From Paracoccaceae bacterium (GTDB lineage: Bacteria > Pseudomonadota > Alphaproteobacteria > Rhodobacterales > Rhodobacteraceae), in the NCBI GenBank assembly GCA_050043005.1, contig JBHJIZ010000069.1, forward strand, positions 1-24,000: DNA of 24,000 nt, read 5' to 3'. Below the pieces are notes generated by a model. That model was not told where the DNA came from. It did no database searches and saw nothing but the letters and a program-made list of their open reading frames with translations. Positions 1,731 to 22,351 of the stretch are shown here, piece after piece. Position 1 is the stretch's first letter. Each line of letters starts with the position of its first letter. The translations under genes and the position numbers were made by a program.

Positions 1731-3002
1731 TCACAATAATTTTCGTTTGGGCTCTATGCTTACTGGGAAATCTTCGCCGATGCGATAAGATACAGGTCGC
1801 TCAGGATCAGAGAGATTTTCAAGAGCAAACTTCGCGACTCTGCGCTTGAATTCGTCATGATGAGATGCCCATCTAATATCTTCGGGAACGATAAATGCTT
1901 TGAGGCGCCGATTAGCGCGATCATTCGTTTGCCGGACAGCAACTCTAGCGACGCCAGGCGCTGTCCGGAGAACCTGCTCAACATAATTTGTAAAGACGTT
2001 CACACCGCCGATCTGTATTGCACTATCTTTACGACCCAGAACCTGAAAACTATCTTCACTAATACTTTTAATCTGATCCGGTGGCTCAATTACTCGACGA
2101 GTCAGCTGAGTAACCGGGATTGTATCACCAGACCGCTCGACCGGTCGCACATGCGGCAAGAATTCGAAGGGAGCGTCGGGCGCATCACGCAACCCGACCC
2201 CGAGCGTTTCGGTGGAGCCATACACCTCGACGAGGCGTCCAAGCCCACTTTGCTGCACTTGAGGCCAAAGCTCAGACGGCGCAGGCGCCGTAGAAGTCAC
2301 ACCGGTACACCCAGCCGGGATTGATGCCCCCGACTTCAGATGCAAACCCCAAGTGAAAGGGGTGCCGATGATCAAATCTCCTGCGTGGCCTTCACGTGCC
2401 AGCGCGCCCGGAGACTTTGAGGCAAGATCAAGCACCAGCCAATCATTGACAAGCGGCGACAAGACGGTGAACAGAAATCCATAGATGTGATGTGCTGGCA
2501 CCTGCGCAACCGCGCGCGAAACCTCCCCGAAGATTTGAGGATGAGTTGACACTTCCTCGACCAGGTCTTCTACGCTGTGCACTATCTGCTTTGGCACACC
2601 GGTAGAACCTGAGGTTTCGAAGACGATTTGCTCGGGCTCGGCATCTGGAAGCTGGCGGAACCCGTTCGCAATGATCTCGCACCACTCTCCAAGTTGGCGA
2701 TGAATTAACAAGTAATCCTCGACCCCGGTACGGTGTAGCAAAAATATTCGATTGATCGCGGCGACGAGTTCGAGCAGCGCAAGGCTGTCGACACCCATTT
2801 CATCGTCGTTGACGGCAGTCTTACTCGTCCAACTGTTAGTCTCGGCTACCGGAACGGCCTGTCCGCGAATCCGCCCGAGTTCGCGCGCCAGTAAAGCAGT
2901 AACTGGGCGGAAAAGGGCATTCTCGCGTCCCTTCAGAAGCATTCCTAGTCTCGGTTGCAACGGCGTGGGCACTTCATCACCCAATAGACGGGTCTCAATC
3001 AT
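1731..3002 (-). CDS. pcl: p-coumarate ligase-like adenylate-forming enzyme (ANL superfamily) with a carrier-protein-like N-terminal region
   Basis: 423 aa. ANL core motifs are present: ETSGSTGVPK (A3), EVYGSTETLG (A5), GRKDSAIQIGGVNV (A8). The short N-terminal part carries MGVDSLALLELV. The gene sits in a pyp/tal context, as for Rhodobacter pCL. RBS GAGG lies 5 nt before the ATG. Confidence 0.8.
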   Translation of the reverse strand: MIETRLLGDEVPTPLQPRLGMLLKGRENALFRPVTALLARELGRIRGQAVPVAETNSWTSKTAVNDDEMGVDSLALLELVAAINRIFLLHRTGVEDYLLIHRQLGEWCEIIANGFRQLPDAEPEQIVFETSGSTGVPKQIVHSVEDLVEEVSTHPQIFGEVSRAVAQVPAHHIYGFLFTVLSPLVNDWLVLDLASKSPGALAREGHAGDLIIGTPFTWGLHLKSGASIPAGCTGVTSTAPAPSELWPQVQQSGLGRLVEVYGSTETLGVGLRDAPDAPFEFLPHVRPVERSGDTIPVTQLTRRVIEPPDQIKSISEDSFQVLGRKDSAIQIGGVNVFTNYVEQVLRTAPGVARVAVRQTNDRANRRLKAFIVPEDIRWASHHDEFKRRVAKFALENLSDPERPVSYRIGEDFPVSIEPKRKLL

Positions 3003-3037
3003 AGCGCCTCAATGCTTCACGATTGGATCGAAAGAAG

Positions 3038-3060
3038 CCGGCGCGTACGCAGCGCGCCGG
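3038..3060 (-). terminator. GC-rich hairpin between the unknown paralogue and pcl (possible intrinsic terminator or attenuator)
   Basis: ccggcgcg (3038-3045) pairs with cgcgccgg (3053-3060) around a 7-nt loop. On the minus strand the hairpin is followed by CTTCTTTCGA. Confidence 0.4.
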
Positions 3061-3082
3061 GTTAGCTGTACGTCCTGAATGA

Positions 3083-3565
3083 TCAGTGGACATCAACTTC
3101 GTGAAGGATCTCGCCCAGAAGACCTGCGTACTGGTCACGCGCCGCCTTCGCTCTGGCCATTAGCGAATATCCCAAAGCCGCCAGTTCGACCGCGCTGAGG
3201 GAAGCGTCGTCTGCAAAGCTGTCGACCCGCATATCCGCTGCCGCATCATAGCTCTCGAGAGTCTCCATGACCTCGTCGAAAGAAGCGAACTCCCACGCTT
3301 TCGCGCGATCACGAGCATTCTCGTCGGCGAAGAAGATTTTCACTGCGGCTACAAAGGTCTGATTAGCTGTCCGATAGATGTTAATTTCGAACCAATACGG
3401 GGCGCCAGGGATGAAGTTCATGGCCATGCAGAGCTCGGTTCCGTCAAAGATCAACGGTCGTTGCCCAGTGCGCATGATTTTGTACTGCATTGGCGGCATG
3501 GTCATCGGAATGGAGTCATTCTCCATCGTGGTGTCCTGCATTTCAAATGGAGACATCTGATTCAT
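3083..3565 (-). CDS. Unknown protein, paralogue P1 of a three-member family in this window
   Basis: The ORF track entry is 3083-3610. I prefer the ATG at 3565 (MNQMSPF...), which has GGGAAG 7 nt upstream and lies just after the P2 stop. It shares three colinear sequence blocks with P2 (3582-4202) and P3 (10642-11082). No known domain recognised. Confidence 0.6.
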   Translation of the reverse strand: MNQMSPFEMQDTTMENDSIPMTMPPMQYKIMRTGQRPLIFDGTELCMAMNFIPGAPYWFEINIYRTANQTFVAAVKIFFADENARDRAKAWEFASFDEVMETLESYDAAADMRVDSFADDASLSAVELAALGYSLMARAKAARDQYAGLLGEILHEVDVH

Positions 3566-3581
3566 GTGAGAACTTCCCGTA

Positions 3582-4202
3582 TCATGAGTGAAGATGGATG
3601 GGCCCAGCACCCAGCGCAGCAGTCAGGAGCCGGCTGAAGTCCAAGCGCAGAGATGCTAGCATCTCGTTGTGTGAGCTAGCAGAAGAGACGGTGTCGAAGG
3701 CCAGCCATGACCAACCTTCAGCGGGTTCGTAGCGTGCAATAAACTGATCAAGATCAGCTGCCGACGATAGGGCTGCTACTTTGTGCAACGGACACGCGGT
3801 GACGCCGTCGGGTACGAGCATTGCTATCCTCGCATAAACCTTACCAGCCGAGGTAAGATAGATCGAGAATTCCTGACGAATTGGCACGGATCCGCTGCTC
3901 ACCAAGGTGTCGATCGATCGATCCACCAACAGTATTCCCTCGAACACTATTGGCCGTTTGCCGTCGCAGCGTAGCCGATAACGAGTATAGGCACCTGACA
4001 ACAGGTTGGTTCCATCATCGACCACGTCTGCCTGAGCAGACAGAAGCATTACCTCATCTGAATTCGGCGTAGCTGGCACAAACGGAATGCGGGAGAGCGC
4101 GTGGGCAACAGGAGCACCCGATGGGTGCCCCCCCCGCCGTGCCCGGAACAAAACGCGCAGATCGTCGTGGATGAACACGCTGCTAGACTGTTGTCCGGTC
4201 AT
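3582..4202 (-). CDS. Unknown protein, paralogue P2, immediately downstream of pyp
   Basis: 206-aa ORF, 44 nt after the pyp stop. The core YRLRCDGKRPIVFEG ... EFSIYLTSAGKVYARIAML ... HKVAALSSAADLDQFI parallels P1 (YKIMRTGQRPLIFDG ... FEINIYRTANQTFVAAVKI ...). Confidence 0.6.
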   Translation of the reverse strand: MTGQQSSSVFIHDDLRVLFRARRGGHPSGAPVAHALSRIPFVPATPNSDEVMLLSAQADVVDDGTNLLSGAYTRYRLRCDGKRPIVFEGILLVDRSIDTLVSSGSVPIRQEFSIYLTSAGKVYARIAMLVPDGVTACPLHKVAALSSAADLDQFIARYEPAEGWSWLAFDTVSSASSHNEMLASLRLDFSRLLTAALGAGPIHLHS

Positions 4203-4246
4203 TTCTCTGAACCCACCCGAAAGTGTTGATCGTCAGGTCACTTAAT

Positions 4247-4618
4247 TCAAGTGCGCTTGACGAATATCCAACAGTTGCCATCATTTGATGCTTTTAAGTG
4301 GATTCTTACTTTGACATTGGCACCCTTGTAAGCAAACTGATAGTCAAACAGCGTGTTGACCTGGCCCGTCTTCGCGAACTTGATGAACTCGCTATGGAAC
4401 CGTTTGCCCTTCGCGCAGGGCGCGATGTCGTTGAAGAAGTTCTTGCCCATCACGCTGGAAGGATCTCGACCAGCAATAAGACCTTCAGCCTTGTTGTACT
4501 TCAGGATTTTGCCGGTGCGATCGACCATGACGGCACCGAAGGGAAGATATTCTGCGCGTCGCGGCTCGGCCTGCAGAATATTGTCGATATCGTTCGTACC
4601 AAAAGGAATGACGTCCAT
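4247..4618 (-). CDS. pyp: Photoactive yellow protein (PAS-fold p-coumaric acid photoreceptor)
   Basis: 123 aa, collinear from memory with Halorhodospira and Rhodobacter PYPs: IPFGTNDIDNIL, PFGAV, YNKAEGLIAGRDP (equivalents of Tyr42, Glu46, Arg52), GKNFFNDIAPC (chromophore Cys codon at 4415-4417) and a WIFVKR C-terminus. RBS GAGGA lies 9 nt upstream. Confidence 0.95.
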   Translation of the reverse strand: MDVIPFGTNDIDNILQAEPRRAEYLPFGAVMVDRTGKILKYNKAEGLIAGRDPSSVMGKNFFNDIAPCAKGKRFHSEFIKFAKTGQVNTLFDYQFAYKGANVKVRIHLKASNDGNCWIFVKRT

Positions 4619-4641
4619 TTACCCAGTCCTCTACTTCGGAA

Positions 4642-5079
4642 TTAGTCGTTTGGAGCGCGATCGTAAGCGCCGTCCACGTTCTGTTGGAATGTATCGTTAC
4701 GGGTCGCCGATTGATCTATCAGGCGCTCCATACTGTTTCGGCTCGCAGGGTTATCGTCTGAGACCTCGCGACCCTCGGGCGCGATCCAGCGATAGTCCAT
4801 ATCGCCCATTGACACCACGCATTGCGGCATTCGCTCAAACCGCGATTGATGTTCGTCCTTCAGAATGTCGAGGTCGATTTCATCGGCCTCACCCATCTCC
4901 ATCAGGGCTTCAATCTCACTGATCTGACCTTCCATGTCAGCTTGATTGGCCTGAGTGATAATTTCTGTTGCCGCTTCGAGCACCCATTCAGCATGGGCGC
5001 CGCGAACGACCAGATTCAGCTCGTCAAAGCTGAATTCATACCGTCCATTCGCCTTCTTCAGGCGACCGATATCATCCAT
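4642..5079 (-). CDS. Acidic unknown protein (145 aa), first gene of the pyp operon
   Basis: The ORF track entry is 4642-5163. The ATG at 5079 (MDDIGRLKK...) has AGGAG 7 nt upstream, and the 28 codons before it look non-coding. The stop lies 23 nt before the pyp start. No domain recognised. Confidence 0.55.
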   Translation of the reverse strand: MDDIGRLKKANGRYEFSFDELNLVVRGAHAEWVLEAATEIITQANQADMEGQISEIEALMEMGEADEIDLDILKDEHQSRFERMPQCVVSMGDMDYRWIAPEGREVSDDNPASRNSMERLIDQSATRNDTFQQNVDGAYDRAPND

Positions 5080-5321
5080 TGCGCATCTCCTGTTGCCTAT
5101 GGGTCCTACCGAATCCGGAGCGCGAACCCACGCAAAGGGCTTTTGGCATATGCCCCTTAACAAACCTTCGCTGCAGTCATTCCAAACCAGTATTGAATTC
5201 TTAGACTTTGCTTAAATCTCCAAAAAAACTGTGCTCTCAGACGTCAGTTGATGTGCTGTTAACCAAGGCACCCGCAAACGTGGGTTTGAAACGAACTGAG
5301 CGGAGTGCGGGAGACCACTGA

Positions 5322-6905
5322 ATGCTCGAAAACACCGCGGGCTTTGCCGATCCAGGATCCGCTTCCAAGATCGTCGAGATCACCGGAACCCTATCGATTT
5401 CAGATTCCATAGCGGTTGCGGAAGGTCGTGCGGTACCGGTTCTTAGCTCTGACGCGTCCGAACGTATCGTGGCCGCGCACGGGAGGTTGCGAACCTGCGT
5501 GCGTCAGGCCCGTCTGGTTTATGGGGTTACGACGGGTTTCGGACCATTGGCGAACCGCCAGGTCGGCACGCACGACATTCAACTTCTGCAACGCAACCTA
5601 ATCTACCATCTAGCAACTGGGGTCGGAGACGTCGCGGACTGGGTGACGGCCAGGATGATCGTCGTAGCCCGGCTATCCTCTATCGCGCAGGGCGTATCAG
5701 GCGCTTCTCCCGAACTGGTCGCACGATTGCTTGGCTTGCTCGGCAGCCCGTACGCCCCGAGAATCCCGATGAAAGGCACTGTGGGAGCCAGCGGAGATCT
5801 CACGCCGTTGGCGCACATGGCCTTGGCGCTCCTCGGTGAAGGCAACTTTATTGACCGCGACGGAAGCGAGGTTTCGTCAGAGAAGGTTCTCGGGACCATT
5901 GGCGGGCCGTTCTCTCTGGAAAGTCGCGACGGTCTGGCATTGGTTAACGGCACGTCGGTCATGACGGCATTGGCCGTGTTGGACGTACGCAGAGCTGAGC
6001 GGTTGATCGAGATGGCCGAACGCTTGACCGTGGGTATGGCAGAGATCCTGAACGGTCGAGCCGAGGCTTGGCATGACGCATTCGCGCGACATCGCCCCCA
6101 TCCGGGACAAGTCGAGACAGCCAAAAGGTTGCGCTTGTTTGCGAAGGGGTCGGCCATGTTGGTCGAGGCATTGGCGGCAGAAACGCTGTTAAACCCGGCT
6201 TTGGCAGCGCAAGTGGTCGAGCGCCCCTTACAGGACGCGTACACGTTGCGGTGTGCGCCACAAGTGATCGGCGCCGCGCGGGACATGCTGGCAACTCATT
6301 TGGAAACAACCCAGCGCGAGTTGAATAGCGCGACGGACAATCCACTGTTCCCAGAGGATGCTCCGGCATTGCACGGTGGGAACTTCATGGGGCAGCATAT
6401 CGGCTTTGCGTCGGACCTGCTGTCAAATGCGACTCTAACCCTTGCCGCCTTCGCGGAGCGGCAAATCGCACGTCTGACGGACGAGCGTCTGAATGAGGGT
6501 CTGCCCGCATTCCTGCATCAGGGAAGCTGCGGCTTGAACAGCGGTTTGATGGGCGCACAGGTCACAGCGACCGCCATTCTGGCCGAAATGCGCTCTCGTT
6601 CTGTTCCTGCATCAATGTTGTCGATCTCCACCAACGGGGCCAATCAGGATCATGTCTCGATGGGGACGATTGCCGCGCGCAACGCTCGAGACCACCTCAA
6701 GGATTTCTCAATGGTGCTGTCGATACTGGGTCTTGCCGTGGCGCAGGGTATCGATTGTCGGGGACAGTCGAACAGGTTCGCTTCGGCTACGCTGGACCTG
6801 TACCGCTTCGTCAGAGATCATAGCGAGACGCTGACTGAAGACCGCCCTCTCTCGCCTGACATTCTGAGGCTGGCCGATGCGATACTCAACACCGATCCAT
6901 TCTGA
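5322..6905 (+). CDS. tal: Tyrosine ammonia-lyase (HAL/PAL/TAL family, MIO cofactor)
   Basis: 527 aa with GVTTGFG, the MIO-forming GASGDL (Ala-Ser-Gly at 5787-5795), LVNGT and NQDHVSMG. The substrate-selectivity position reads YHL (His codon 5607-5609), which is the His-Leu switch described for Rhodobacter TAL. The gene is divergent from the pyp operon. Confidence 0.9.
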   Translation: MLENTAGFADPGSASKIVEITGTLSISDSIAVAEGRAVPVLSSDASERIVAAHGRLRTCVRQARLVYGVTTGFGPLANRQVGTHDIQLLQRNLIYHLATGVGDVADWVTARMIVVARLSSIAQGVSGASPELVARLLGLLGSPYAPRIPMKGTVGASGDLTPLAHMALALLGEGNFIDRDGSEVSSEKVLGTIGGPFSLESRDGLALVNGTSVMTALAVLDVRRAERLIEMAERLTVGMAEILNGRAEAWHDAFARHRPHPGQVETAKRLRLFAKGSAMLVEALAAETLLNPALAAQVVERPLQDAYTLRCAPQVIGAARDMLATHLETTQRELNSATDNPLFPEDAPALHGGNFMGQHIGFASDLLSNATLTLAAFAERQIARLTDERLNEGLPAFLHQGSCGLNSGLMGAQVTATAILAEMRSRSVPASMLSISTNGANQDHVSMGTIAARNARDHLKDFSMVLSILGLAVAQGIDCRGQSNRFASATLDLYRFVRDHSETLTEDRPLSPDILRLADAILNTDPF

Positions 6906-6994
6906 TTCATTGAAGATCATCACGTAGATAAGGAACGCCGCCAATAACTCTTTCTTAAGAAACTGGCTCGAACTCCTGATATGCGTTATCGTAC

Positions 6995-7013
6995 CTCCCG
7001 TGAGAAACGGGAG
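6995..7013 (+). terminator. Small hairpin downstream of tal (weak terminator candidate)
   Basis: ctcccgt (6995-7001) pairs with acgggag (7007-7013) around a 5-nt loop, followed by TATCTTAAAT. The stem is short and the U-tract poor. Confidence 0.25.
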
Positions 7014-7215
7014 TATCTTAAATGGACACAGTGCAGGGTTGTGGGGCAGTACGTTTAATCGTCGAAAATGATGGCAAGATTGAGCTTTCGTATCATTTTG
7101 GAACGCTGAATGAGGCGATGGAAATATTCGACTTCATTCGTGATTTCTTTCCCAATGCTAGATACGTCATCGAACCAGCGCTTCACTAAAGCCACAGCAT
7201 AGAACCGCCGGGTCC

Positions 7216-9516
7216 TCAGACTGCCGTGCGTGGTTCTTCGGACTCTGAAGGCATCGTGAAGTCCTCTGCGGTTTCGGAACTTGATTGTGCTTCGGCTTCC
7301 CATTGCGCCAGCATCGCTTCGATATCGTCATCTGCTGGCGTCTCTGTGTCGTTCGAGTCCGGATCGTTTGAGGACAAGTCACCTTCCAAGCCGCCGGGAT
7401 CCTGTTCGCCAAAGCTGTCGTCGGCAGGAGGCGACTCAGGATCTTCGACCGCCCATTCGGTAGAAAACTGGTGCGCGTCATTCTCCTTGGACGGAACTTC
7501 ACCGTGTGTCGTGATGTCTTCGATCGCGGATGCGTCGACAGTGAAGTGCGCCATCGATGCACTCATTTCCTGAGTGAGGACGGACATTTGTTCTACGCCC
7601 TTCGACAAACGTTCACCGCCTTGAGACAGTTCTGCAACCACGCTCTGCAGCTCAAACAGTGAAGAGTTCGTATCTTCAGTCTGTGCGGATTGCGCAGCAA
7701 TACTATACGAAATCTGCTGAATCAGGCTGGCAGATTCGGTGATCATCTGAACCATCCGATCAAGCTGAGCACTCGCCGATTGAGCCTGGTTCGCCGTCTT
7801 GGCCGAGAGTTGCTCTATCTCTGCTGCGGCGAACATCGAGCGATCGGCAAGCTTGCGGACTTCCTGAGCGACAACCGCAAAGCCACGACCATGCTCGCCC
7901 GCTCTCGCCGCCTCGATCGAGGCATTCAAGGCCAGAAGGTCAGTTTGGCGAGATATCTCCTGCACGACTGTAACTCTTTGAAGAATCTCCTGGATCGCGC
8001 TCACGGCGTCCTTGACGATTTTCCCACATTCCTGAGCTTGGCTTGCAGCTTCGCTGGCACGCGACTCCGTCGTTGCGGCCTGATCCGCGCTAGCGTTCAG
8101 TTCCTCGCTGATCGTGTTCAGTGACGCGACGGCGGTATCCATCGCGGCGGCTTGAGAACGCATCGAACTGAAGAAGGTCTGAGAGAATGCGCCCAGGTTG
8201 CCGGAAAGATCCGTCAATTGCTCCAGCGTGACACGACCATCGCCAACGACCCGTTGCAGCGTCCTGGTCATGTCCTCGAATGACTGTCCGAGCGCATCCC
8301 TCTCCGAAACAGTTTCGATACTGATCCGCAAATCGCCAGCGGCGACTTGTCCGGCCAGCCGGGACATGGCTACGAACGACAGCCTGAGAAACCCGACTGT
8401 GTCAAGGATACGGCCAAACTCGTCTTTCCGGTCGGACCCGCACACAGGTATGTCCGTGCCGCCCTGCAAACATAGGTCCAATGCCTCGGTGGTGGCTTTC
8501 ATACCCGAAGCAAACCGACGCATCGCCAGAATGGCAAGAAGCAGAACCAGCAAGATTGAGAGCGCGGCAATCGTCGCACCAACCGAAGCGCTGAAGTCAG
8601 CACTGCTAACCATAGCGTCGACCCGGGCCCGCGTAGCAGCGCGGTGTTCTATGATTGCAGTGTGAAACGCATCAATCGGTTGAGCTGTATCCGCAAACCA
8701 TTCGGCAACTGTGACCGACCTTCCCGGATCGCGCGCCGATAAGTCGGTGATCGCTTGGGACATCCCACCTAGCCAGTCGGCTCGAAGATCTCTGAGCGCA
8801 ATTGCGTCGGCTGAATGAACACGGTCCCGGCGGATGGTATCAAGTTCGTCCATCGTGAACCGAACGTTGTCACGTACACTCTCAAAGAGTTGAGATGCGA
8901 TCCGTACTGATACGCCTGATTTGTCTTCCGATGCGTTTTGTACCACCAATCCACCGACAGTCCGGAGCTGCCCAATTTGATCCTTGGCACGTTCCAAGAG
9001 CGCCAAGCCCATCAAATCGCGTCCCAGTTCCGACCCACTTGCGAAGTGTTGCGCTGCCGCTATCTGGCCGATCAAACCGTGAATGATCGATGTGTACTCA
9101 CTGCGAACGTAGATGCCGTCTGCGGGCGTTCCATCCAACGCGCCACGTAGCTTCGAGAGCCGCGAAACAATGGTCTTGATTGCCTCCGCGTGTTTCGTTG
9201 CTTCGCCCTCTTCAACGGGACCTTTTGCAAGGAGTTCGTTGATGGCGACGTCAACCGCACCGCGTTGCGAACGCAGCTCCTGCCTGCTGGGCCGGTCATC
9301 AGTGGAGATCAAAACCAGGTGCGCGAGGCTTCGTTCCTTCTGTAGTTCATGTATCAGGCTGGAAGCATTGGCATTGATCTGGAGCGCTTCACTCAGTTTG
9401 CCCAGAACTGCGCGATCCGCCATCGAGTTCGACGTGACGTAAGCCGCCAAGGCCAACATCATCAAGAATGGCACAATGATCGCGGCCCCGATCAGCGCTT
9501 TTAATGACCTATGCAT
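7216..9516 (-). CDS. Methyl-accepting chemotaxis protein with a NIT-like periplasmic sensor, HAMP domain and acidic C-terminal tail
   Basis: I prefer the start at 9516 (MHRSLKAL; RBS GAGGGGAG) over the track start at 9543. There are two TM segments. The sensor region contains [12 protein letters not shown]..., typical of nitrate/nitrite-sensing (NIT) domains; this call is tentative. The canonical MCP hairpin tip [38 protein letters not shown] is present. The last ~110 aa are Asp/Glu/Ser-rich. Confidence 0.9.
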
Positions 9517-9610
9517 GATTGCGCTCCCCTCACAGTGGCGCATCTCATAGAACAGATCTTCTTAAAAAGGGCTAACGAACCAGTCTATTTCAGGCACTTA
9601 TCTAAAATTA

Positions 9611-9767: not shown

Positions 9768-10613
9768 ATGCTCCTGTCAATAGCTCTAGCCATAACGATC
9801 GCAGCTGGCATAGCGCTCGGCGTTCAGTTTCGACGGCGTTTGGTTGCCGTCTGTGTAAGACTTGAACGTCTCGAGGCGAACGGAGAGCACGACGCCACCA
9901 CACGGGCAGAAGACAGAGAGACGCAAACCCTTCGCGTTGAAGAGATTCTCTCTTCTCTTGCGACGCGTATTCGCACCGCCGAGCAAGGTTGGACGGAGCG
10001 GATCGAAGTTCTTGAGAACACAATCTCTGCGCGCCTGATCAATATGGATGCCATCCGTGAGGACTCCGAAGATCGCCGCGATCAGACCCTAATCGACAGC
10101 CGGTTGCAGGAATTTGAAAGGCGGATCACCGAAATCGCGCAACAGTTGGATGCGCTCTCGATCCAGATAAATAACGTCCCACGAAGCGGAGTCTTTGAAG
10201 ACCTGGAACAGAAATTGAACGAGGTCTCAGCCCGGTTTGATGGTGCCGAAGCAAGTTTGACGCAATATCGATCGATTGAAGATCATATCGCCACGTTGCA
10301 ATCCAAAATCTCGGAAATCGAGACAACGGCTGCCTCCCATGCATCAGCGCAAGCTGATCTGAGGACTGATGTGCAGCGGGAGAAGTCCAGTCTCAGCTCC
10401 CGAGTAGATGCCTTTGAAAGAGAGCTCCGACAATTCGCGGAGCGACTGCAAGGACAAACCGAAACCAGCGGTTTGGCATCTCAGCCAGCGACCGCGCCGC
10501 ACAAATCGACTGAAAAAGCAGGACGTATCGGCGACGTGTCTGACACGCGCGCCGCCAGCTTGGACAACACGATCGCATTGCCGGATCGCGTCGTCACAAT
10601 CCTAAACTCATGA
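9768..10613 (+). CDS. Membrane-anchored coiled-coil protein, first gene of the gvp operon
   Basis: 281 aa, RBS GGAG 5 nt upstream. The N-terminal hydrophobic segment LLSIALAITIAAGIALGV is followed by long heptad-like helical sequence rich in E/R/Q/L. No known family recognised. Confidence 0.6.
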   Translation: MLLSIALAITIAAGIALGVQFRRRLVAVCVRLERLEANGEHDATTRAEDRETQTLRVEEILSSLATRIRTAEQGWTERIEVLENTISARLINMDAIREDSEDRRDQTLIDSRLQEFERRITEIAQQLDALSIQINNVPRSGVFEDLEQKLNEVSARFDGAEASLTQYRSIEDHIATLQSKISEIETTAASHASAQADLRTDVQREKSSLSSRVDAFERELRQFAERLQGQTETSGLASQPATAPHKSTEKAGRIGDVSDTRAASLDNTIALPDRVVTILNS

Positions 10614-10641: not shown

Positions 10642-11082
10642 ATGACTGAAATCAATCGCGATAAGATGACTGGGACGGACTGCAGCATCGTCGCTATTGG
10701 TAGGACGGGAACGGCTCCGCTACGCTTCAAAGGCATGCGGCAAGTCGCACGCCGTTACGAGACTGATTTTTTGCAAGCCAACTTAGCGCTATGGCGTTGT
10801 GCGACGGGCGGCTACGTTGCTCATCTCGAGCTGATGGAGGCCGGTCAGAGGCAAAGCCACGCGCACCGCGTTGGAACTGTTTCCGAAGCGTTATCCTTCT
10901 TCGCATCCCTGCGCTCGAGCATGCCGGATGTGCCTGAACCGCAGCCGGGAAAGAAAAAACGTCAGTCGATTGATGCGGTTGCGAAGGTTCTCCTGAAGCG
11001 ATCGCGAACCCTGAGCGCGCGGGACGCCTTGGAACAATTGATCGAAGATTTCTCGGACACCCTCATTGTAGGGGCGCTTTGA
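10642..11082 (+). CDS. Unknown protein, paralogue P3 of the P1/P2 family
   Basis: 146 aa, RBS GGAGG 6 nt upstream. The blocks GTAPLRFKG ... ANLALWRCATGGYVAHLEL ... HRVGTVSEALSFF are collinear with P1 and P2. Confidence 0.6.
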   Translation: MTEINRDKMTGTDCSIVAIGRTGTAPLRFKGMRQVARRYETDFLQANLALWRCATGGYVAHLELMEAGQRQSHAHRVGTVSEALSFFASLRSSMPDVPEPQPGKKKRQSIDAVAKVLLKRSRTLSARDALEQLIEDFSDTLIVGAL

Positions 11083-11187: not shown

Positions 11188-12219
11188 ATGCCGAGAAAAG
11201 CGCATGCACCTGCCCGATCCAAGCCCGCTGCCTCGGCAAAGGGTGGCGTGGAAACGCCCGCTGCGGAAACTTCCACCGCAGAGAGAACGCCGCCAAGCCT
11301 GGCTGACGATGGACTCGACCTTTACGAAGATAGCGAAATCTCGTCGCTGCGCAGCCGGGCACATCTTTACTTGAGCCTCGGCATACCAGTGCACTTTCGC
11401 GGCCGTGCCGGGATGGGCAAAACAACACTCGCCCAAAGGGTCGCTCAAGAAGCTGGCCGCCCGGTCTCGATGATAACCGGCGATCACGCGCTCGTAGCGG
11501 CTGACTTGGTCGGCCGCGAGATCGGCTATGATTCTCAGCGGGTGCGCGATCGCTACGTACACTCTGTCAGCCGGTCAGAAGAGAAAGTCCGTGCCGTTTG
11601 GGCCGACGGCGTACTGACCAAGGCGATGCTGGAGGTCCATACGCTCATTTATGATGAGTTCACCCGCACGCCACCCGAGACAAACAACGTATTGCTTTCA
11701 GCACTTGAAGAACGGGTGCTCTATCTGAACCGCCCGTTGCGCGAGAGCGCGCAAGTGCGGGCGCATCCCTCGTTCAAGGTGATCTTCACCTCTAATCCGG
11801 ATGAGTATTCTGGCGTCAAAGCGGCTCCCGATGCACTTTTCGACCGCATGGTTTCGGTCGATGTCTCGCTCTGCAGCCCGGAGACTGAGGCGGGCATTGT
11901 TGCTTTCCGGACCGGCATTGGTCAGCCGGAGGCGACGGGGATCGTGACCCTGCTTCGCGCGATCCGGGACAAGCTTCCGGCGGCCAACCCACCCTCGATC
12001 CGTACCGCGATCATGATCGGCAAGATCGTCCGGACACTGGGCATGGCAACCAGCGCAAGTGATGAGCGGTTTGTTCAAGTCTGTTTGGATGTGTTGGAGT
12101 CGCGTTGTCCGAGCGACACAAACCGCGCCGAACGGGATCGTTATCTTGACGGATTGCGAAAAGAAATCCTGCGAACCGGTAGCAAACCCCGGACCGCAAA
12201 ACAGGAGGCGGCTGCGTGA
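11188..12219 (+). CDS. gvpN: Gas vesicle protein GvpN (MoxR/CbbQ-like AAA+ ATPase)
   Basis: Walker A GRAGMGKTT and Walker B LIYDEFTR are present, along with NVLLSALEE and FKVIFTSNP..Y.G...A.DAL.DR, as in GvpN. I prefer the ATG at 11188 (GAGGA 6 nt upstream) over the TTG at 11158 in the track. There is an Ala/Pro/Lys-rich N-terminal extension of ~60 aa. Confidence 0.9.
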   Translation: MPRKAHAPARSKPAASAKGGVETPAAETSTAERTPPSLADDGLDLYEDSEISSLRSRAHLYLSLGIPVHFRGRAGMGKTTLAQRVAQEAGRPVSMITGDHALVAADLVGREIGYDSQRVRDRYVHSVSRSEEKVRAVWADGVLTKAMLEVHTLIYDEFTRTPPETNNVLLSALEERVLYLNRPLRESAQVRAHPSFKVIFTSNPDEYSGVKAAPDALFDRMVSVDVSLCSPETEAGIVAFRTGIGQPEATGIVTLLRAIRDKLPAANPPSIRTAIMIGKIVRTLGMATSASDERFVQVCLDVLESRCPSDTNRAERDRYLDGLRKEILRTGSKPRTAKQEAAA

Positions 12220-12461
12220 AGCAACCAGTCCACCGATTACCGCGCCGAAGCCCTGTGCGCCCGCGCTCAACCGCCCGTTCCGGTGTGGAGATCGCTAAGG
12301 AACTCGTCCGCGCGGAGTTCGAAAAGCAGCGCCTTCGGCGTGAGCTTGATCGGCTCGAGCGCCGGGTCGCGCAAAGCCAGGCTGAATACATCGCGAACTC
12401 TGAGCGTGCCGTGCACTGTTGCGCCAAAATTCTAGACGATGAAACCAGGGAGTGGTCATGA
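12216..12461 (+). CDS. Small basic coiled-coil protein (81 aa), unknown
   Basis: The GTG start has an excellent RBS (AGGAGG 7 nt upstream) and overlaps the gvpN stop (GTGA). Its own stop overlaps the gvpO ATG (ATGA). An Arg-rich N-terminus is followed by EFEKQRLRRELDRLERRVAQSQAEY. Confidence 0.55.
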   Translation: MKQPVHRLPRRSPVRPRSTARSGVEIAKELVRAEFEKQRLRRELDRLERRVAQSQAEYIANSERAVHCCAKILDDETREWS

Positions 12462-14684: not shown

Positions 14685-16784
14685 ATGCCGGTTGCCGCTG
14701 AGTACCCGTCGCTCAAAGTCCAGGCGGTCGACGCACCCGATGCCCATCACAATCTTGCTCGCATGACGTCAGGGGCGCTGCGCCGTATGGGGCTACGTGC
14801 TGGGTCGACCATTGCCGTTCACGGTGATCGAGTAAGCTATGCCCGGGTACTTCCCGGTCGCTCGGGCGCGCTGACCGAGACCGACATTGCCTTACCAGAG
14901 CTGGTGATCAGCAACTGCGGGGCAGGCATAGGACAGTCGATCCGGATTGAGCCGGTCGAGTTGCCGATCTTAGACAGCGTCAACATCGAAGTCGAAGATG
15001 GTCGCCCATTCCGCCACAATGAGTCGAAGTCCGGCTTGCTTGACCAACCGATCCGGATCGGCGATCGCGCGCTGCTCGTTCTGCCGACCAAAGAAGTTCG
15101 CTCCATCCGAATTCGCGATTGCGCTCCGGTCGAGGCGGGCTTGATCGGCCATCAGACCGATGTCGAGATCCTGGAAACCAAGCAGCCGCGAGCTTATCCG
15201 ACGGTCGGAGGGCTTTCGGCACAGATTGCGCGTGTTCGCGAGATGGTGGAGTTGCCGATCCGTCAGCCTGAGCTGTTCGCGCACCTCGGGATCGTCCCTC
15301 CGCGTGGCATCCTGTTCACCGGCCCGCCCGGCAGTGGCAAAACCCTGCTCGCCCGTGCTGTGGCTGAGCAAACCGACGCGCACTTCTACCACATCAACGC
15401 GCCCGAGATCGTCTCGAAGCATTATGGCGACTCAGAGAAGAAACTGCGCGACGTTTTCCAGGAAGCCGAGCGCAATGCGCCATCAGTGATCTTTATCGAC
15501 GAAATCGATGCAATTGCTCCCAAACGCGACAGCGTCTCTGGTGAAAAGCAGCTTGAGAAACGTGTGGTTGCGCAACTCCTGACGCTGATGGATGGACTGT
15601 CGGACCGTGGACAGGTTGTCCTGATGGCGGCGACGAACCTGCCGCACATGCTTGATCCCGCCCTGCGTCGACCTGGTCGCTTCGACCGCGAGGTGCCGTT
15701 CACCGCCCCGGATCGCGAAGCCCGTCAGGAAATTCTCTCGGTTCATACTGCAATGATGCCGCTGGCGGACGGCCTGGATCTGGCATCTGTCGCCGCCAAG
15801 ACCGATGGATTTGTCGGTGCGGATCTCGCCGCTGTAGCGCGGGAAGCTGCGATGGCGACGCTCCGGCGTTCGGGCGCCTTGGAGAGGTCAGTGGATGTTA
15901 CCCGACTTCAGGTCACACCCAATGATTTTACCGCCGCGCTCGCTGCCACGGGGCCGAGTGCGCTGCGCGAGACGCAGGTTCAAACGCCCGAAACCGCCTG
16001 GGCAGACGTTGGTGGCTTGGATGATACCAAGCAGATGCTCACCGAGGCCATCCTTTGGCCACTCAATCAACCACAACTTGCGCAGCAGCTCGGTCTTTCA
16101 CCAGTCTCGGGAGTGCTTCTGCATGGACCACCCGGTAGCGGCAAGACGCTCCTGGCGCGTGCACTGGCGTCAGAGAGCGGGCTGAACTTCATTCCAGTGC
16201 GCGGCGCACGGATTTTATCTCAGTATCTCGGCGAAGCCGAACGGATGATTGCCGAACTGTTTGCCCGGGCGCGCCATGCAGCGCCCTGCCTTATGTTCTT
16301 CGACGAGATCGACTCTCTGGCACCCAGCCGGGTAGCAGGGGACACGAACATCGCGCGCGTCGTTGCGCAATTGCTGATCGAGATTGATGGCATAGAAGGG
16401 CGAGGCGGGACGATCTTACTTGGTGCCACCAACCGGATTGAAGCAATCGATCCAGCCTTGTTGAGACCCGGCCGTTTCGATCTGACCGTCGAGATTGTGC
16501 ATCCCGACGCAACGGCCCGGACCAAGATTTTGGACGTTCACTGCCGCGGTAAGCCGCTGGCGGATGATGTGGACTTAAGTGCGTTGGCCGATGCATCCGA
16601 GGGTTGGAGTGGGGCCGAACTCGCCGCTCTTTGCCAGGGTGCCGCACGGCAGGCACTTCGGCGCACACTGCTTGCCGAGGTAGATGCTACCACGCCGAAC
16701 ATTACCTGTGCGGACTTCGATCGAGCCTTCGCGGAGCGGGTCGAAAGTGATGCGATCAGAAAGGGACCCAATCAATGCCTGTAG
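14685..16784 (+). CDS. CDC48/VCP/VAT-like ATPase with an N-domain and two AAA+ modules
   Basis: 699 aa. The N-terminal part looks like a CDC48_N barrel. D1 has GPPGSGKTLLARAVA and VIFIDEIDA, with pore loop SKHYGDSE. D2 has GPPGSGKTLLARALA and LMFFDEIDS, with pore loop SQYLGEAE. PALLRPGRFD-type second-region-of-homology motifs occur in both modules. Confidence 0.9.
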   Translation: MPVAAEYPSLKVQAVDAPDAHHNLARMTSGALRRMGLRAGSTIAVHGDRVSYARVLPGRSGALTETDIALPELVISNCGAGIGQSIRIEPVELPILDSVNIEVEDGRPFRHNESKSGLLDQPIRIGDRALLVLPTKEVRSIRIRDCAPVEAGLIGHQTDVEILETKQPRAYPTVGGLSAQIARVREMVELPIRQPELFAHLGIVPPRGILFTGPPGSGKTLLARAVAEQTDAHFYHINAPEIVSKHYGDSEKKLRDVFQEAERNAPSVIFIDEIDAIAPKRDSVSGEKQLEKRVVAQLLTLMDGLSDRGQVVLMAATNLPHMLDPALRRPGRFDREVPFTAPDREARQEILSVHTAMMPLADGLDLASVAAKTDGFVGADLAAVAREAAMATLRRSGALERSVDVTRLQVTPNDFTAALAATGPSALRETQVQTPETAWADVGGLDDTKQMLTEAILWPLNQPQLAQQLGLSPVSGVLLHGPPGSGKTLLARALASESGLNFIPVRGARILSQYLGEAERMIAELFARARHAAPCLMFFDEIDSLAPSRVAGDTNIARVVAQLLIEIDGIEGRGGTILLGATNRIEAIDPALLRPGRFDLTVEIVHPDATARTKILDVHCRGKPLADDVDLSALADASEGWSGAELAALCQGAARQALRRTLLAEVDATTPNITCADFDRAFAERVESDAIRKGPNQCL

Positions 16785-19316: not shown

Positions 19317-19652
19317 GTGATTGAAACACTCAACACCCCCGAGACGCAGAACCGGATCAACAGCTTGCTTGAGGAACACTGCGACGCAAAGGGGCGGTTG
19401 GCGCTCGACCCCAAAACACTGGAACGCGATCTCGCTCGCTTGGTCCTAGCGATCATGGAGATGCTGCGCGAGTTGATGGAACTGCAGGCCATTCGGCGGT
19501 TCGAGGCAGGTAGCTTGACACCCAAGCAAGAAGAAGATCTCGGCGAGGCTCTGTTCAGGTCGCGGGCAAAGCTGCGAGAAGTCGCACAATCCTTTGGTCT
19601 CTCAGAACAGGATCTCAACCTTGGGCTGACACTGAACACTGACAGCCTTTGA
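19317..19652 (+). CDS. gvpK: Gas vesicle protein GvpK
   Basis: LARLVLAIMEMLRELMELQAIRRFEAGSLTPKQEEDLGEALFRSRAKLREVAQSFGLSEQDLNLGL matches the GvpK signature (L..LVL...E.LR.L.E.QA.RR.E.G.L......LG......). GTG start with AGGAG 6 nt upstream. Confidence 0.85.
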   Translation: MIETLNTPETQNRINSLLEEHCDAKGRLALDPKTLERDLARLVLAIMEMLRELMELQAIRRFEAGSLTPKQEEDLGEALFRSRAKLREVAQSFGLSEQDLNLGLTLNTDSL

Positions 19653-19666
19653 GAACGGAGTGATTC

Positions 19667-21133
19667 ATGAACGAACTTGTTAGCAAGCTCTGCCGTGCCG
19701 AGCTGATCACGCATTTGCTTGAGATCGACGAAGAGACCGCGTCCGAGAAAGAAGCCGCAGCATGCGTACTGAACGTTCTCGATGCACAGGTCTTTCGAAT
19801 TGCTCCGTACCTTTACGGCGTTAACTTGTCTTCGATGACAGATGCCACTGACGCGGAGAGGGTCGAGAACATCTCGGAGGCCTTAACTGCACGCCTGGGG
19901 CCGGGTTCGGTCGGCGTCACAACACTCATACTGGATCCTCAACAGGACGATGCCGCCACCGGTGAGGTCGAGGAAAACACGCTGCTATTGATGCAGGCCG
20001 TCGCAACCGCAGCCGACCAGGTCACGTCAGAGGACGGCCCCGAAAGGGGCGCAATACTCAGCGCCGAATTCGCTGTTCGTGCAGCGGAGCTGACCGCCCG
20101 TGGATTGGCGGAACTCGCCGTTTCGGCACCGCCTGCTGGCGAGGAAATCGCACCTGCTCTTGAAGCAACGACGAACGCATTGCACGCGCTCGAGTTGCGT
20201 CTCGACCATTTGGAGTTGCGGTTCGGTGAAATTTCCGAGGCCAGTAGGGAAAAGATGCAGGACTGGGCGGATTCGAGTTTGCGCAAACCGCTACGAGATG
20301 TTGAAAGTCAGCTCGCTGGCATCCGTTCTGTTCAATCCGAGACCATCGATGACTGGGGTGCTCGGATCGGCACACGGCTCGATACTCTTGAGCAGGGGCA
20401 GATCCCGGCCGAGTGGTTTCTTGGCCAGATAATGTCGCGGATCGGAGATCTTGACGAGCAACTCTCAGGCAACGAGCAAGAGCAGCGTCAAACAGCATTG
20501 GAATGGGCTCGCCGCCTCGATAGTCGGATCTCGGCTGTGGCGGATCAACTCATACCACCCGAGTGGTTCCTGGGCCGCGTCATGGCTCGTATAGGTGAAT
20601 TGGACCAGCAGCTTTCCAGTTCTCAGCGCGATGCGGAAACAGCAGCGATCGACTGGGCTGAACGTTTGGACGACCGCGTCACGACGATCTCCGGCAGTCT
20701 TGCCCCGCCCGAATGGCTGGTGGGACGCATAATTGAAAGGATCGACGCTCTCGAGGTTCAACTTTCGCCTGCCGAGAGAGAACCGCACGCGGATCGGGAC
20801 GCGCTGATGTCTGACTTCTCCCACAAGCTCGAGCCGTTGGCGTCTACAATCGATGAGATGAATGGGCGCCTTGCTGCCCTTGTGACTCGAGAACCAGCCA
20901 CCGAAGGCAAAATCGATACACCACAGATTGCCGAGTTGGCTTTGAGTCATGAGCGCTTGAACAAGTCATTCAGCAAACTGAAGACCGAGGTATCAACACT
21001 CGCGAAAAGACATACTCAATCTGCCAACGAAACCAGTAAATCTCTGGATTTGATCCGCTGCGGATTGGCCGAAATTTTAGCTCAGATTCAAATAAAAAAT
21101 GATAATAATCATAGTATAGAGCAATATACTTGA
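19667..21133 (+). CDS. 488-aa helical protein with three exact-period 50-aa tandem repeats; unknown family
   Basis: RBS GGAG 7 nt upstream. The repeats start at W230, W280 and W330: DWGARIGTRLDTLEQGQIPAEWFLGQIMSRIGDLDEQLS / EWARRLDSRISAVADQLIPPEWFLGRVMARIGELDQQLS / DWAERLDDRVTTISGSLAPPEWLVGRIIERIDALEVQLS. Degenerate half-units flank them. This is the last gene before gvpA. Confidence 0.7.
   Translation: MNELVSKLCRAELITHLLEIDEETASEKEAAACVLNVLDAQVFRIAPYLYGVNLSSMTDATDAERVENISEALTARLGPGSVGVTTLILDPQQDDAATGEVEENTLLLMQAVATAADQVTSEDGPERGAILSAEFAVRAAELTARGLAELAVSAPPAGEEIAPALEATTNALHALELRLDHLELRFGEISEASREKMQDWADSSLRKPLRDVESQLAGIRSVQSETIDDWGARIGTRLDTLEQGQIPAEWFLGQIMSRIGDLDEQLSGNEQEQRQTALEWARRLDSRISAVADQLIPPEWFLGRVMARIGELDQQLSSSQRDAETAAIDWAERLDDRVTTISGSLAPPEWLVGRIIERIDALEVQLSPAEREPHADRDALMSDFSHKLEPLASTIDEMNGRLAALVTREPATEGKIDTPQIAELALSHERLNKSFSKLKTEVSTLAKRHTQSANETSKSLDLIRCGLAEILAQIQIKNDNNHSIEQYT
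20354..20803 (+). repeat. Three tandem 150-bp coding repeats (diverged at the DNA level, conserved at the protein level)
   Basis: Codons 230-379 of the 19667-21133 ORF. The unit length is exactly 50 codons, judged from the conserved Trp positions and the PPEW(F/L)(L/V)GR motif. Confidence 0.8.
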
Positions 21134-21175
21134 CGGCTCTTGCGAGTTTTGGCGGATCTGATATGATTTATAATA
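21075..21175 (+). promoter_or_regulatory. AT-rich candidate promoter region for gvpA
   Basis: There are two sigma70-like pairs: TTAGCT (21077-21082), 18 nt spacer, GATAAT (21101-21106, preceded by T to give TGATAAT); and TTGCGA (21140-21145), 16 nt spacer, TATGAT (21162-21167), with TATAAT at 21169-21174. The first pair lies in the AT-rich last codons of the repeat-protein gene. Pattern match only. Confidence 0.35.
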
Positions 21176-21265: not shown

Positions 21266-21478
21266 ATGGCGATCGAGAAGAGTGTCGCGTCCACCAGCCT
21301 GGCCGAAGTCGTTGACCGGATTCTGGACAAGGGCGTCGTTATTGACGCCTTCGTTCGCGTTTCCCTGGTCGGCATCGAACTCCTGGCTGTTGAAGTTCGT
21401 GCCGTTGTGGCGTCCGTTGAGACTTGGTTGAAGTACGCCGAGGCAATTGGCTTGACGGTCGACCCGCAAGCGGCCTGA
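21266..21478 (+). CDS. gvpA: Major gas vesicle structural protein GvpA
   Basis: 70 aa. [63 protein letters not shown] matches canonical GvpA along nearly its whole length. RBS GGAGAGGA. Confidence 0.95.
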
Positions 21479-21485
21479 CGAAAAA

Positions 21486-21512
21486 CGGTCAGGTCTTCCC
21501 GAGACCTGACCG
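21486..21512 (+). terminator. Strong hairpin terminator after gvpA
   Basis: An 11-bp perfect stem, cggtcaggtct (21486-21496) with agacctgaccg (21502-21512), has a 5-nt loop and starts 7 nt after the gvpA stop. It is preceded by an A-run and followed by TATATCGA, so the U-tract is weak. Confidence 0.65.
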
Positions 21513-21685
21513 TATATCGACTGGTCATACGATTTACTGACTGACCCCAAGACGCCTGATCAACCGGTGATGGCTGTGGAAGTCTAATTGCCTGTTCCCG
21601 ACAGTTCCCTCGCGTCCTCACCATCGCGCAGCGCAACCATGGTAGCAGTCAGTGGACATCGCCGTTAGCAGAGTGGTGTGAGAGA

Positions 21686-22351
21686 ATGACGAAAAACTTT
21701 CGATCAGAAGCGCAATCGGTCCGGGCGGCAGCACAAGCCAAGCTGAGCGAGCTGCGTATGCAGCGTCGTGACAAGCGTCTCGCTGCGCAATCTAATCCAT
21801 CTGTCGACCAGGCTTCAGAAGTAGCAACGCCAGTCGAAGCGTCTGCGAAACCAGAAAGCGTGTCGAAAAAAACGACGACGTCGACAGCGAAACGGCAGAC
21901 AAAGAAAGCTGAGGGTGACGTACCTGCCAAGCGACCCAAGCGACGCACATCAGCACGCAAGGCCACCGGAGGTGAAAAAACTACCGAGAACGCACGTTCA
22001 GATAAGCAGTCGATTCAAGTTTCTGCGGCAGCGCAATCGATCTCGAGCGAAGTCTCACATGAGACAAAGAAACAAACCGAGCGGTCCAAATCAGCAAGAC
22101 CATCCTATAAGAAAGCGAGCGCAGTACCAAAGGCTGTGCAACAGGAGCGCGCATCCGACTCAGACCTTGGAACCCTTCCGGGTGTAGGAGAAGGTCTGGT
22201 GCGCCTATTCCAGAATTGCAATGTCAACTCTTTGCAAGATCTCGCTAATGCCGATCCAACGAAATTGAGAAAAAAGATGGGATTGCCAGGCGAGCTTCTA
22301 AATATAGAATCTTGGATAGAAGTTGCGAAAACTTCTGACCACGCCCCTTAG
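21686..22351 (+). CDS. Lys/Ala/Ser-rich basic protein with a C-terminal helix-hairpin-helix (DUF4332-like) module
   Basis: 221 aa. About 150 aa are low-complexity and basic (KRQTKKAEGDVPAKRPKRRTSARK...). They are followed by DLGTLPGVGEGLVRLFQNCNVNSLQDLANADPTKLRKKMG, an HhH-type pattern (L..(I/L)PG(I/V)G......L...G(I/V)....DLA). The RBS is weak. Confidence 0.55.
   Translation: MTKNFRSEAQSVRAAAQAKLSELRMQRRDKRLAAQSNPSVDQASEVATPVEASAKPESVSKKTTTSTAKRQTKKAEGDVPAKRPKRRTSARKATGGEKTTENARSDKQSIQVSAAAQSISSEVSHETKKQTERSKSARPSYKKASAVPKAVQQERASDSDLGTLPGVGEGLVRLFQNCNVNSLQDLANADPTKLRKKMGLPGELLNIESWIEVAKTSDHAP

Follow-up and report, generated by a model that had tools for sequence, protein, structure and literature searches.

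Gas-Vesicle Gene Cluster and the Gene between gvpK and gvpA

A stretch of 24,000 nucleotides (nt) from a Paracoccaceae bacterium (assembly GCA_050043005.1, contig JBHJIZ010000069.1, positions 1 to 24,000; hereafter, the window) contains a complete gas-vesicle (gvp) gene cluster on the + strand, in which an open reading frame (ORF), here called X, encodes an acidic, helical protein of 488 amino acids (aa) between gvpK and the gene of the major shell protein, gvpA (Table 1). In the Paracoccaceae type of gas-vesicle cluster, which is associated with the photoactive yellow protein (PYP), X is an accessory component specific to the lineage. It belongs to an undescribed accessory family of this known system that is absent from Pfam, NCBIfam and PDB and occurs almost exclusively in this one, rare, alphaproteobacterial cluster type. 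A preliminary description of the locus had emphasized three 50-aa tandem repeats in X and suggested an analogue of the shell-stiffening protein GvpC; the conservation, synteny and co-occurrence given below are tentatively read as pointing to an adaptor paired with a membrane-anchored partner.

The ATG of X is preceded by a GGAG Shine-Dalgarno sequence 6 nt upstream (19657-19660, +) and lies 14 nt beyond the gvpK stop codon (19650-19652); X is a tightly spaced member of the accessory operon behind gvpK. As noted in the preliminary description, it is the last gene before gvpA, from which it is separated by an AT-rich gap of 132 nt. The description of the product as acidic and mostly helical is likewise borne out by the composition (86 Asp and Glu versus 46 Lys and Arg; isoelectric point 4.5) and by the AlphaFold2/DSSP prediction. 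Identical copies of X occur on three metagenome contigs, and a chance reading frame is ruled out by conservation. The last ~15 codons (21079-21133) give a tail, QIQIKNDNNHSIEQYT, from AT-rich DNA, which has no counterpart in the homologues terminating in ...ILAR(Q/I); the ORF apparently reads through into the AT-rich region before gvpA.

GvpC (PF01304) produced no match in any of the cluster ORFs scanned, in agreement with the earlier remark that the cluster has no recognisable gvpC. The gvp clusters of Bacillus megaterium and of actinomycetes, too, are not known to contain gvpC, and its absence is not by itself a gap needing to be filled.

Domain Organisation and the 50-Residue Repeats

The family-defining part of X is the N-terminal globular domain, modelled by AlphaFold2 with a predicted local distance difference test (pLDDT) of about 90 in the full model and, for the domain alone, of 85.6, with a predicted template modelling score of 0.76. 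In the family alignments, the N-terminal region (~150-185 aa) is conserved in all members, with L8, A11, H16, E27, F43, R44, Y50, G78, L108 and the alanine stripe A129/A133/A136/A140 being invariant or near-invariant. Foldseek searches of PDB with the N-domain and full models returned nothing below E 0.1; all that was matched, at E >= 0.12, were ferredoxin-like folds of a generic kind (Cas2, CutA, RRM, ACT-like). A relationship of the domain to GvpF/L was considered and rejected, as hhalign against the GvpF/L alignment gave a probability of 0.2% and there was no PF06386 match. The middle region of the family is variable in length and sequence and is composed of short amphipathic helices of the R-L-D-x-(I/L)-E type split by Pro/Gly; distant homologues show only weak self-similarity at offsets of 31-34. 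In X, the model of the repeat region consists of helices of 20-47 residues broken at each PPEW (pLDDT 50-75), and the chain ends in a confident helix of 70 residues.

Self-comparison of X gives a sole peak at the offset of 50, the next being at 100, with the three units strictly in register and with zero indels; off the diagonal, the best window of 50 aa reaches a BLOSUM62 score of 155 versus 23.8 +/- 6.2 (maximum 48) in 100 shuffles. The units are pairwise identical at 17-20 of 50 residues (34-40%) and at 48-55% of the DNA positions, and Tandem Repeats Finder reported nothing in the repeat region of X. The period is exact, and the copies are old and diverged. Thus, the earlier statement of three exact 50-residue repeats at nt 20354-20803 holds for period and position but not for the units themselves, and the degenerate half-repeats said to flank them are recognisable upstream, mainly by a DW...L..L motif 30 aa before unit 1, but are weak, with 4-7 identities in 50. 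The consensus of 11 units from 5 proteins reads.Wa.RLd.R........iPpEWFLG.I.sRIgeLd.qlsg, in which the conserved R, L/I and W/F recur at a spacing of 3-4 on amphipathic helices, a pattern fitted by an ordinary coiled coil as well.

The 50-aa unit with PPEW is confined to the closest subclade, three units being present in the proteins P0001-P0003 and one in P0004 and P0005, so that the variation of repeat number proposed earlier as a check was found, 3 versus 1, among close relatives. Across P0001-P0003, the units in the same position share 27-33 (unit 1), 33-40 (unit 2) and 19-24 (unit 3) of 50 residues, while the paralogous units share 13-25; the same-position units being closer than the paralogous ones, the triplication predates the species of P0001-P0003 and has been retained since. 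Between the window and locus L004, the non-synonymous divergence (pN) is 0.25 in the repeats, 0.24 in the N-domain and 0.50-0.52 in the helical parts next to the repeats, with saturation at synonymous sites. Since the repeat value equals that of the N-domain and is half of that of the flanks, the units are constrained functional modules in this subclade and not filler. A repeat serving as a mere spacer is ruled out by this conservation.

A non-homologous GvpC analogue, whose repeats bind the outer GvpA shell and stiffen it and whose repeat number tunes the strength or width of the vesicle, would account for tandem helical repeats under purifying selection that differ in number among relatives, in a gene adjoining gvpA in a cluster without detectable gvpC. 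The conserved Arg, Leu/Ile and Trp/Phe are the residue types of the reported R/L/F motif of GvpC, and in haloarchaeal GvpC the repeats are likewise joined to a compact terminal domain (PMC10903477). However, neither PF01304 (E <= 1) nor an NCBIfam GvpC model matched any of the 18 family members, the period is 50 rather than 32-38, and the predicted helices are broken at each PPEW. A 33-aa GvpC repeat spans four GvpA subunits (PMC10903477), on which scale 50 aa correspond to 6.06 and the 25-aa half-unit to 3.03 subunits, but such commensurability is numerology, as about 1 random period in 7 would show it. The distant orthologues in the same gvpK-X-gvpA slot lack the 50-aa PPEW repeat, although their GvpA is 92-93% identical; therefore, the repeat cannot be the general GvpA-binding element of the family nor the basis of its shared function. 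The position of X in an accessory operon upstream of the promoter-like site of gvpA argues for low abundance, and, as described below, paralogues of X exist outside gvp clusters, while Octadecabacter, described as gas-vacuolate, keeps the core gene order without X. Accordingly, the conserved presence in the cluster and the constrained repeats of varying number stand from the earlier proposal, but the non-family-wide repeat, the non-gvp paralogues and the gene position speak against it, and we consider such an analogue unlikely.

Family Membership and Distribution of the Loci

No Pfam or NCBIfam family above threshold and no PDB match by sequence-profile search were obtained for X, so that the searches place it in none of the unrelated characterised families whose recognition would have spoken against the earlier proposal. 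When all 18 family members were scanned, nothing but coiled-coil noise below the threshold (Dynactin_p22, CLZ, PspB, Apolipoprotein, Baculo_PEP_C) was obtained, apart from P0011, a metagenome protein of 269 aa with a strong match (E 1e-15) to RdfA, the rod-determining factor A. A link of the family to RdfA was rejected, as the match is confined to P0011, the first 156 aa of which are identical to P0018 and are followed by divergence into the RdfA-matching segment; P0011 has probably arisen by chimeric assembly or by rearrangement, and the match is not regarded as a family feature.

The family is rare, with ~20 sequences, including the homologues P0002-P0018, and is confined to a very small clade. 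Only 4 close relatives were found in 5.8 billion clusters, and phmmer against 1.84 billion representatives gave 15 matches at E <= 1e-3, with E-values from 1e-109 to 1e-3 over aa 1-185. Relatives with named sources are annotated as "hypothetical protein" and come from Paracoccaceae or other alphaproteobacterial metagenome-assembled genomes (MAGs). The profile locus search with a narrow family alignment yielded 3 genome loci and 1 metagenome locus, the word-indexed profile search mostly unrelated coiled-coil proteins, and tblastn of X against 72,556 plasmids no match; the literature searches produced no description of the protein.

The survey of alphaproteobacterial homologues that had been suggested found a family member directly after gvpK in ten independent loci, one of them rearranged, and in most of the gvp-linked loci X is followed by gvpA and then by a basic helix-hairpin-helix (HhH) protein. 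Three other loci lie outside gvp clusters, of which L011 and L012 are among RTX-type secreted proteins and proteases and L015/P0029 is among metabolic genes. The LAE(L/I)(L/I)AR helix at the C-terminus is present in 10 of 10 gas-vesicle-linked members and in none of the 4 non-gvp members (L011, L012, P0015, P0029). As the N-domain occurs in all members and this helix in the gvp-linked ones only, we take the former as a general module and the latter as gas-vesicle-specific. The X of the window combines the traits of the family, that is, the conserved N-domain, the gene directly after gvpK, the C-terminal helix of LAExxAR type and the co-occurring anchor protein treated below.

In the plasmid gvp cluster of Octadecabacter arcticus, the same core order, ...gvpL-gvpL-gvpS-gvpF-gvpK, ends at gvpK, and neither X nor the anchor protein is present. 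Octadecabacter has been described as a gas-vacuolate genus (PMC3646047).

These loci also bear on X as an assembly-stage scaffold or chaperone, working transiently with GvpK, GvpF/L, GvpJ/S, GvpG or the AAA+ proteins (GvpN, Cdc48-like), outside the mature vesicle and without a membrane link. The position directly after gvpK is invariant and tightly spaced, GvpK has been implicated in initiation (PMC10903477), and a globular domain joined to a coiled coil is a typical scaffold architecture. However, Octadecabacter has the same core genes in the same order without X, the pairs of an X paralogue and an anchor gene outside gvp clusters are left unexplained, and the gas-vesicle-specific C-terminal helix is explained no better than by a tether. 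We regard this role as possible, if rather unlikely.

Candidate Membrane-Anchored Partner and the Proposed Role of X

The first gene of the cluster encodes a protein of 281 aa in which RRR comes after a hydrophobic segment at the N-terminus and which also has a long coiled coil, a stretch rich in Ser and Pro, and a C-terminal motif. The anchor proteins, for which there is no Pfam or NCBIfam assignment, end in (L/M/Q)P-x-(R/G)-V-(V/I)-x-(L/I/V) and were found in the 7 loci with enough flank (the window, L006, L010, L017, L018, L011 and L012). In L006, L010, L017 and L018 the gene occupies the same place in the cluster as in the window, and in L011 and L012 it is immediately upstream of the X paralogue. 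In ~200 kb of six-frame translation, each locus contains this motif a single time, in every case at the C-terminus of the anchor protein, with the exception of one irrelevant antisense match. A two-protein module is favoured mainly because X and the anchor protein co-occur in both gvp and non-gvp loci and are both missing in Octadecabacter.

In the non-gvp loci L011 (2919-10924) and L012 (73-8312), the pair of the X paralogue and the anchor gene is situated between very large proteins with RTX-type calcium-binding repeats, one of these neighbours having a trypsin-like protease domain and one being metalloprotease-like.

From the observed anatomy, conservation, synteny and co-occurrence we infer, tentatively, that X may be a scaffold or tether paired with the membrane-anchored partner and positioning the vesicles or their nucleation, rather than a shell stiffener; this is the reading we prefer, at a confidence that falls short of probable. 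X would be a three-part adaptor of a ferredoxin-like N-domain, a variable helical middle and a gas-vesicle-specific C-terminal amphipathic helix, the middle region having been regularised in the subclade of the window into three 50-aa modules of the helix-PPEW-helix kind. A gas-vesicle component would be contacted by the C-terminal helix, perhaps aided by the repeats, and the anchored coiled-coil protein by the N-domain common to the family or by the helical region. Together, the two proteins would place vesicles, or their nucleation, with respect to the cytoplasmic membrane, with the repeats setting the reach or the valency. The "assembly ruler or scaffold" offered earlier as an alternative is close to this proposal.

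Several observations weigh against the tether. The partner motif is short, and pairwise BLAST between gvp and non-gvp anchor proteins beyond the C-terminal motif was not significant (E 0.08-0.6). The non-gvp locus L015 has no anchor-type neighbour within 6 kb. The sample is small (~11 independent loci), and co-occurrence within an operon is confounded by shared ancestry, so that only L011 and L012 are informative. The literature searched yields no report of a gas-vesicle membrane tether, and the strong constraint seen in the repeats would be expected of a surface for periodic binding, for instance to the GvpA rib, no less than of a spacer. A combination of both functions, with X and the 281-aa protein forming a membrane-to-vesicle tether and the 50-aa modules acting as multivalent rib-binders of about six GvpA subunits each, would make X both a GvpC analogue and an anchor, with the neighbouring light- and chemo-sensory genes possibly controlling the site of vesicle formation or the persistence of vesicles; we hold this to be improbable.

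Neighbouring Genes and Other Features of the Window

The coordinates of the features are collected in Table 1.

Table 1. Features of the gas-vesicle cluster, of protein X and of the related loci; coordinates refer to the window unless a locus is named.
Feature	Position	Strand	Remarks
281-aa anchored coiled-coil protein (cluster gene 1)	9768-10613	+	candidate partner; C-terminus ...ALPDRVVTILNS
146-aa protein (gene 2)	10642-11082	+	no family assignment; homologues in L006, L017, L018
gvpN (gene 3)	from 11158	+	
81-aa coiled-coil protein (gene 4)	12216-12461	+	between gvpN and gvpO; no family assignment; homologues in L006, L017, L018
gvpO (gene 5)	from 12452	+	
gvpJ-like (gene 6)	from 12751	+	
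Hsp20-like (gene 7)	from 13082	+	
gvpF/L (gene 8)	from 13645	+	
gvpG (gene 9)	from 14446	+	
Cdc48/p97-type ATPase (gene 10)	14685-16784	+	699 aa; CDC48_N and two AAA domains; between gvpG and gvpL
two gvpL/F (genes 11-12)	from 16775 and from 17773	+	
small GvpA-family gene (gene 13)	from 18492	+	
short gvpF-like (gene 14)	from 18689	+	
gvpK (gene 15)	19317-19652	+	PF05121, E 6.8e-24; invariant upstream neighbour of the X family
X (gene 16)	19667-21133	+	488 aa; acidic, helical, gvpK-linked; family so far undescribed
N-terminal globular domain of X	19667-20122	+	aa 1-152; beta-alpha-beta-beta-alpha-beta core and two long helices, ferredoxin-like; family-defining
helical linker	20123-20353	+	aa 153-229; poorly conserved, pN 0.50 versus L004
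degenerate DW half-unit inside linker	20258-20353	+	aa 198-229; 6-7/50 identities
repeat unit 1	20354-20503	+	aa 230-279: WGARIGTRLDTLEQGQIPAEWFLGQIMSRIGDLDEQLSGNEQEQRQTALE
repeat unit 2	20504-20653	+	aa 280-329: WARRLDSRISAVADQLIPPEWFLGRVMARIGELDQQLSSSQRDAETAAID; best conserved across orthologues (33-40/50)
repeat unit 3	20654-20803	+	aa 330-379: WAERLDDRVTTISGSLAPPEWLVGRIIERIDALEVQLSPAEREPHADRDA
degenerate post-repeat helix	20804-20884	+	aa 380-406: LMSDFSHKLEPLASTIDEMNGRLAALV; conserved in P0004, P0005
long C-terminal helix	20918-21127	+	aa 418-487; pLDDT 83-92
LAEILAQ motif in C-terminal helix	21065-21085	+	aa 467-473
promoter-like site in X-gvpA gap	21140-21167	+	TTGCGA-16-TATGAT, extended TG; consensus match only
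gvpA (gene 17)	21266-21478	+	PF00741 and NF006874, E 3e-36; major shell protein; downstream neighbour in most loci
221-aa basic protein (gene 18)	21686-22351	+	C-terminal helix-hairpin-helix
anchor protein, L006	2096-2632		
anchor protein, L010	245-829		Limibaculum MAG
anchor protein, L018	410-1015		
anchor protein, L017	ends 998		partial
anchor protein, L011	9107-9880		non-gvp locus
anchor protein, L012	6530-7258		non-gvp locus
gvpK-linked loci			window; P0002; P0003/L004; P0018/L008; P0009/L006; L010; P0017/L013/L018; P0008/L014/L017; L016; P0004/L005 (rearranged)

The Cdc48-type ATPase is present in L010, L013/L018 and L014/L017, while neither L006 nor the Octadecabacter cluster has it; being absent from some clusters, it counts as a second AAA machine that is optional, next to GvpN. 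The 221-aa basic protein is Lys/Ala/Ser/Thr-rich, with weak HHH_5 and IMS_HHH_1 matches and a 2 x 9-bp tandem repeat inside its gene (21927-21944), and it is conserved directly downstream of gvpA in L004, L006, L010 and L014; its helix-hairpin-helix is a motif of DNA-binding type within a gas-vesicle operon. At 7 nt past the gvpA stop, a perfect 12-bp stem-loop (21485-21513), ACGGTCAGGTCT TCCCG AGACCTGACCGT, has a T-run on the minus strand only and might act on the highly expressed gvpA transcript as an attenuator or as a hairpin that stabilises the mRNA.

The cluster is flanked by genes for a pCL-like AMP-binding ligase (1731-3002, -), a PAS/PYP-like protein (4247-4618, -, 123 aa), an aromatic amino-acid lyase of the tyrosine/histidine ammonia-lyase type (TAL; 5322-6905, +) and a NIT-MCP chemoreceptor (7216-9543, -). 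The lyase and an MCP recur beside the gvp cluster in L006, L010 and L014, and the ligase in L006 and L018. The genes at 1731-9543 look like the PYP chromophore set of TAL, pCL and PYP, which in Rhodobacter capsulatus and Loktanella is reported to adjoin the gvp genes (PMC3646047, citing Kyndt 2004).

X as a regulatory or signalling adaptor, linking the PYP and chemoreceptor genes to gas-vesicle production or turnover, would suit the sensory genes (PAS/PYP-like gene, TAL-like lyase, pCL-like ligase, MCP) that flank the cluster here and in L006, L010, L014 and L018, and the PYP-gvp linkage noted in the literature (PMC3646047). However, the Pfam/NCBIfam scans show no DNA-binding, kinase, receiver or other signalling domain in X, the ferredoxin-like fold match is generic, and X sits among structural and accessory genes rather than among the sensory ones, which makes this role highly improbable.

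Comparison with Known Systems

Cyanobacterial GvpC (PF01304; Anabaena, Microcystis, Calothrix) resembles X in being helical, in the tandem repeats of varying number, whose conserved residues are Arg, Leu and aromatic ones that in X, too, may lie on a single face of the helix, and in the gene adjoining gvpA. It is accessory and not essential to vesicle formation, and the same is suggested for X by Octadecabacter, which is without it. However, X has no sequence similarity to cyanobacterial GvpC and differs from it by the period of 50 aa (25-aa half-unit) versus 33, by the units that are interrupted by Pro-Pro and contain Trp and Gly, by the globular N-domain of 150 aa, by the gene position upstream of gvpA in the gvpK operon (gvpC being downstream) and by the repeat that is not family-wide. 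X may function in the manner of GvpC, but by family model, repeat length and gene position it falls outside the GvpC family. Haloarchaeal GvpC shares with X the acidic character and the helical repeats joined through a linker to a compact terminal domain (PMC10903477), but its repeats are of 32-38 aa, the domain is C-terminal, the gene position is other and there is no detectable homology.

GvpX of Serratia sp. ATCC 39006 (gvpK-gvpX-gvpA3-gvpY) occupies the same kind of slot as X, between gvpK and a gvpA-family gene, and is likened to it by the gene slot alone; GvpX is dispensable for vesicle formation, and its function is not known (PMC4982088, PMC10344784). The search of 1.84 billion representatives with X gave no match from a source named as enterobacterial, the identifiable sources being alphaproteobacterial or Paracoccaceae MAGs.

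The apolipoproteins A-I/A-IV/E (PF01442) have, like the X family, tandem amphipathic helices separated by prolines, and five family members matched PF01442 below the threshold, the best with 28 bits (P0002) versus the cutoff of 90 bits, while the X of the window gave no match. The unit length differs, and the likeness is one of composition and periodicity, not of homology.

The GvpU of B. megaterium, which clusters vesicles (cited in PMC10903477), would correspond to the favoured adaptor role of X in the spatial organisation of vesicles rather than the building of the shell. No sequence relationship of GvpU to X was detected, and GvpU acts via phase separation. GvpU is not known to have a membrane partner.

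Gas-vesicle clusters are mined as acoustic reporter genes, while the roles of most accessory proteins are unresolved, and for the X family, a fixed constituent of one cluster type, the present analysis supplies a candidate partner anchored in the membrane and a C-terminal element specific to gas vesicles. With ~20 sequences among billions, the family is so rare that its general importance is limited unless the mechanism is new. Should X bind the shell, evolution would have arrived independently at a solution to the task of GvpC, using repeats of another length, and this would help in engineering vesicle mechanics; if X is a tether, it would be the first link between vesicle and membrane and would bear on vesicle nucleation and positioning. 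As a candidate, X lends itself to testing either as a repeat protein of a second, independent type that binds the shell or as a tether of vesicles to the membrane.

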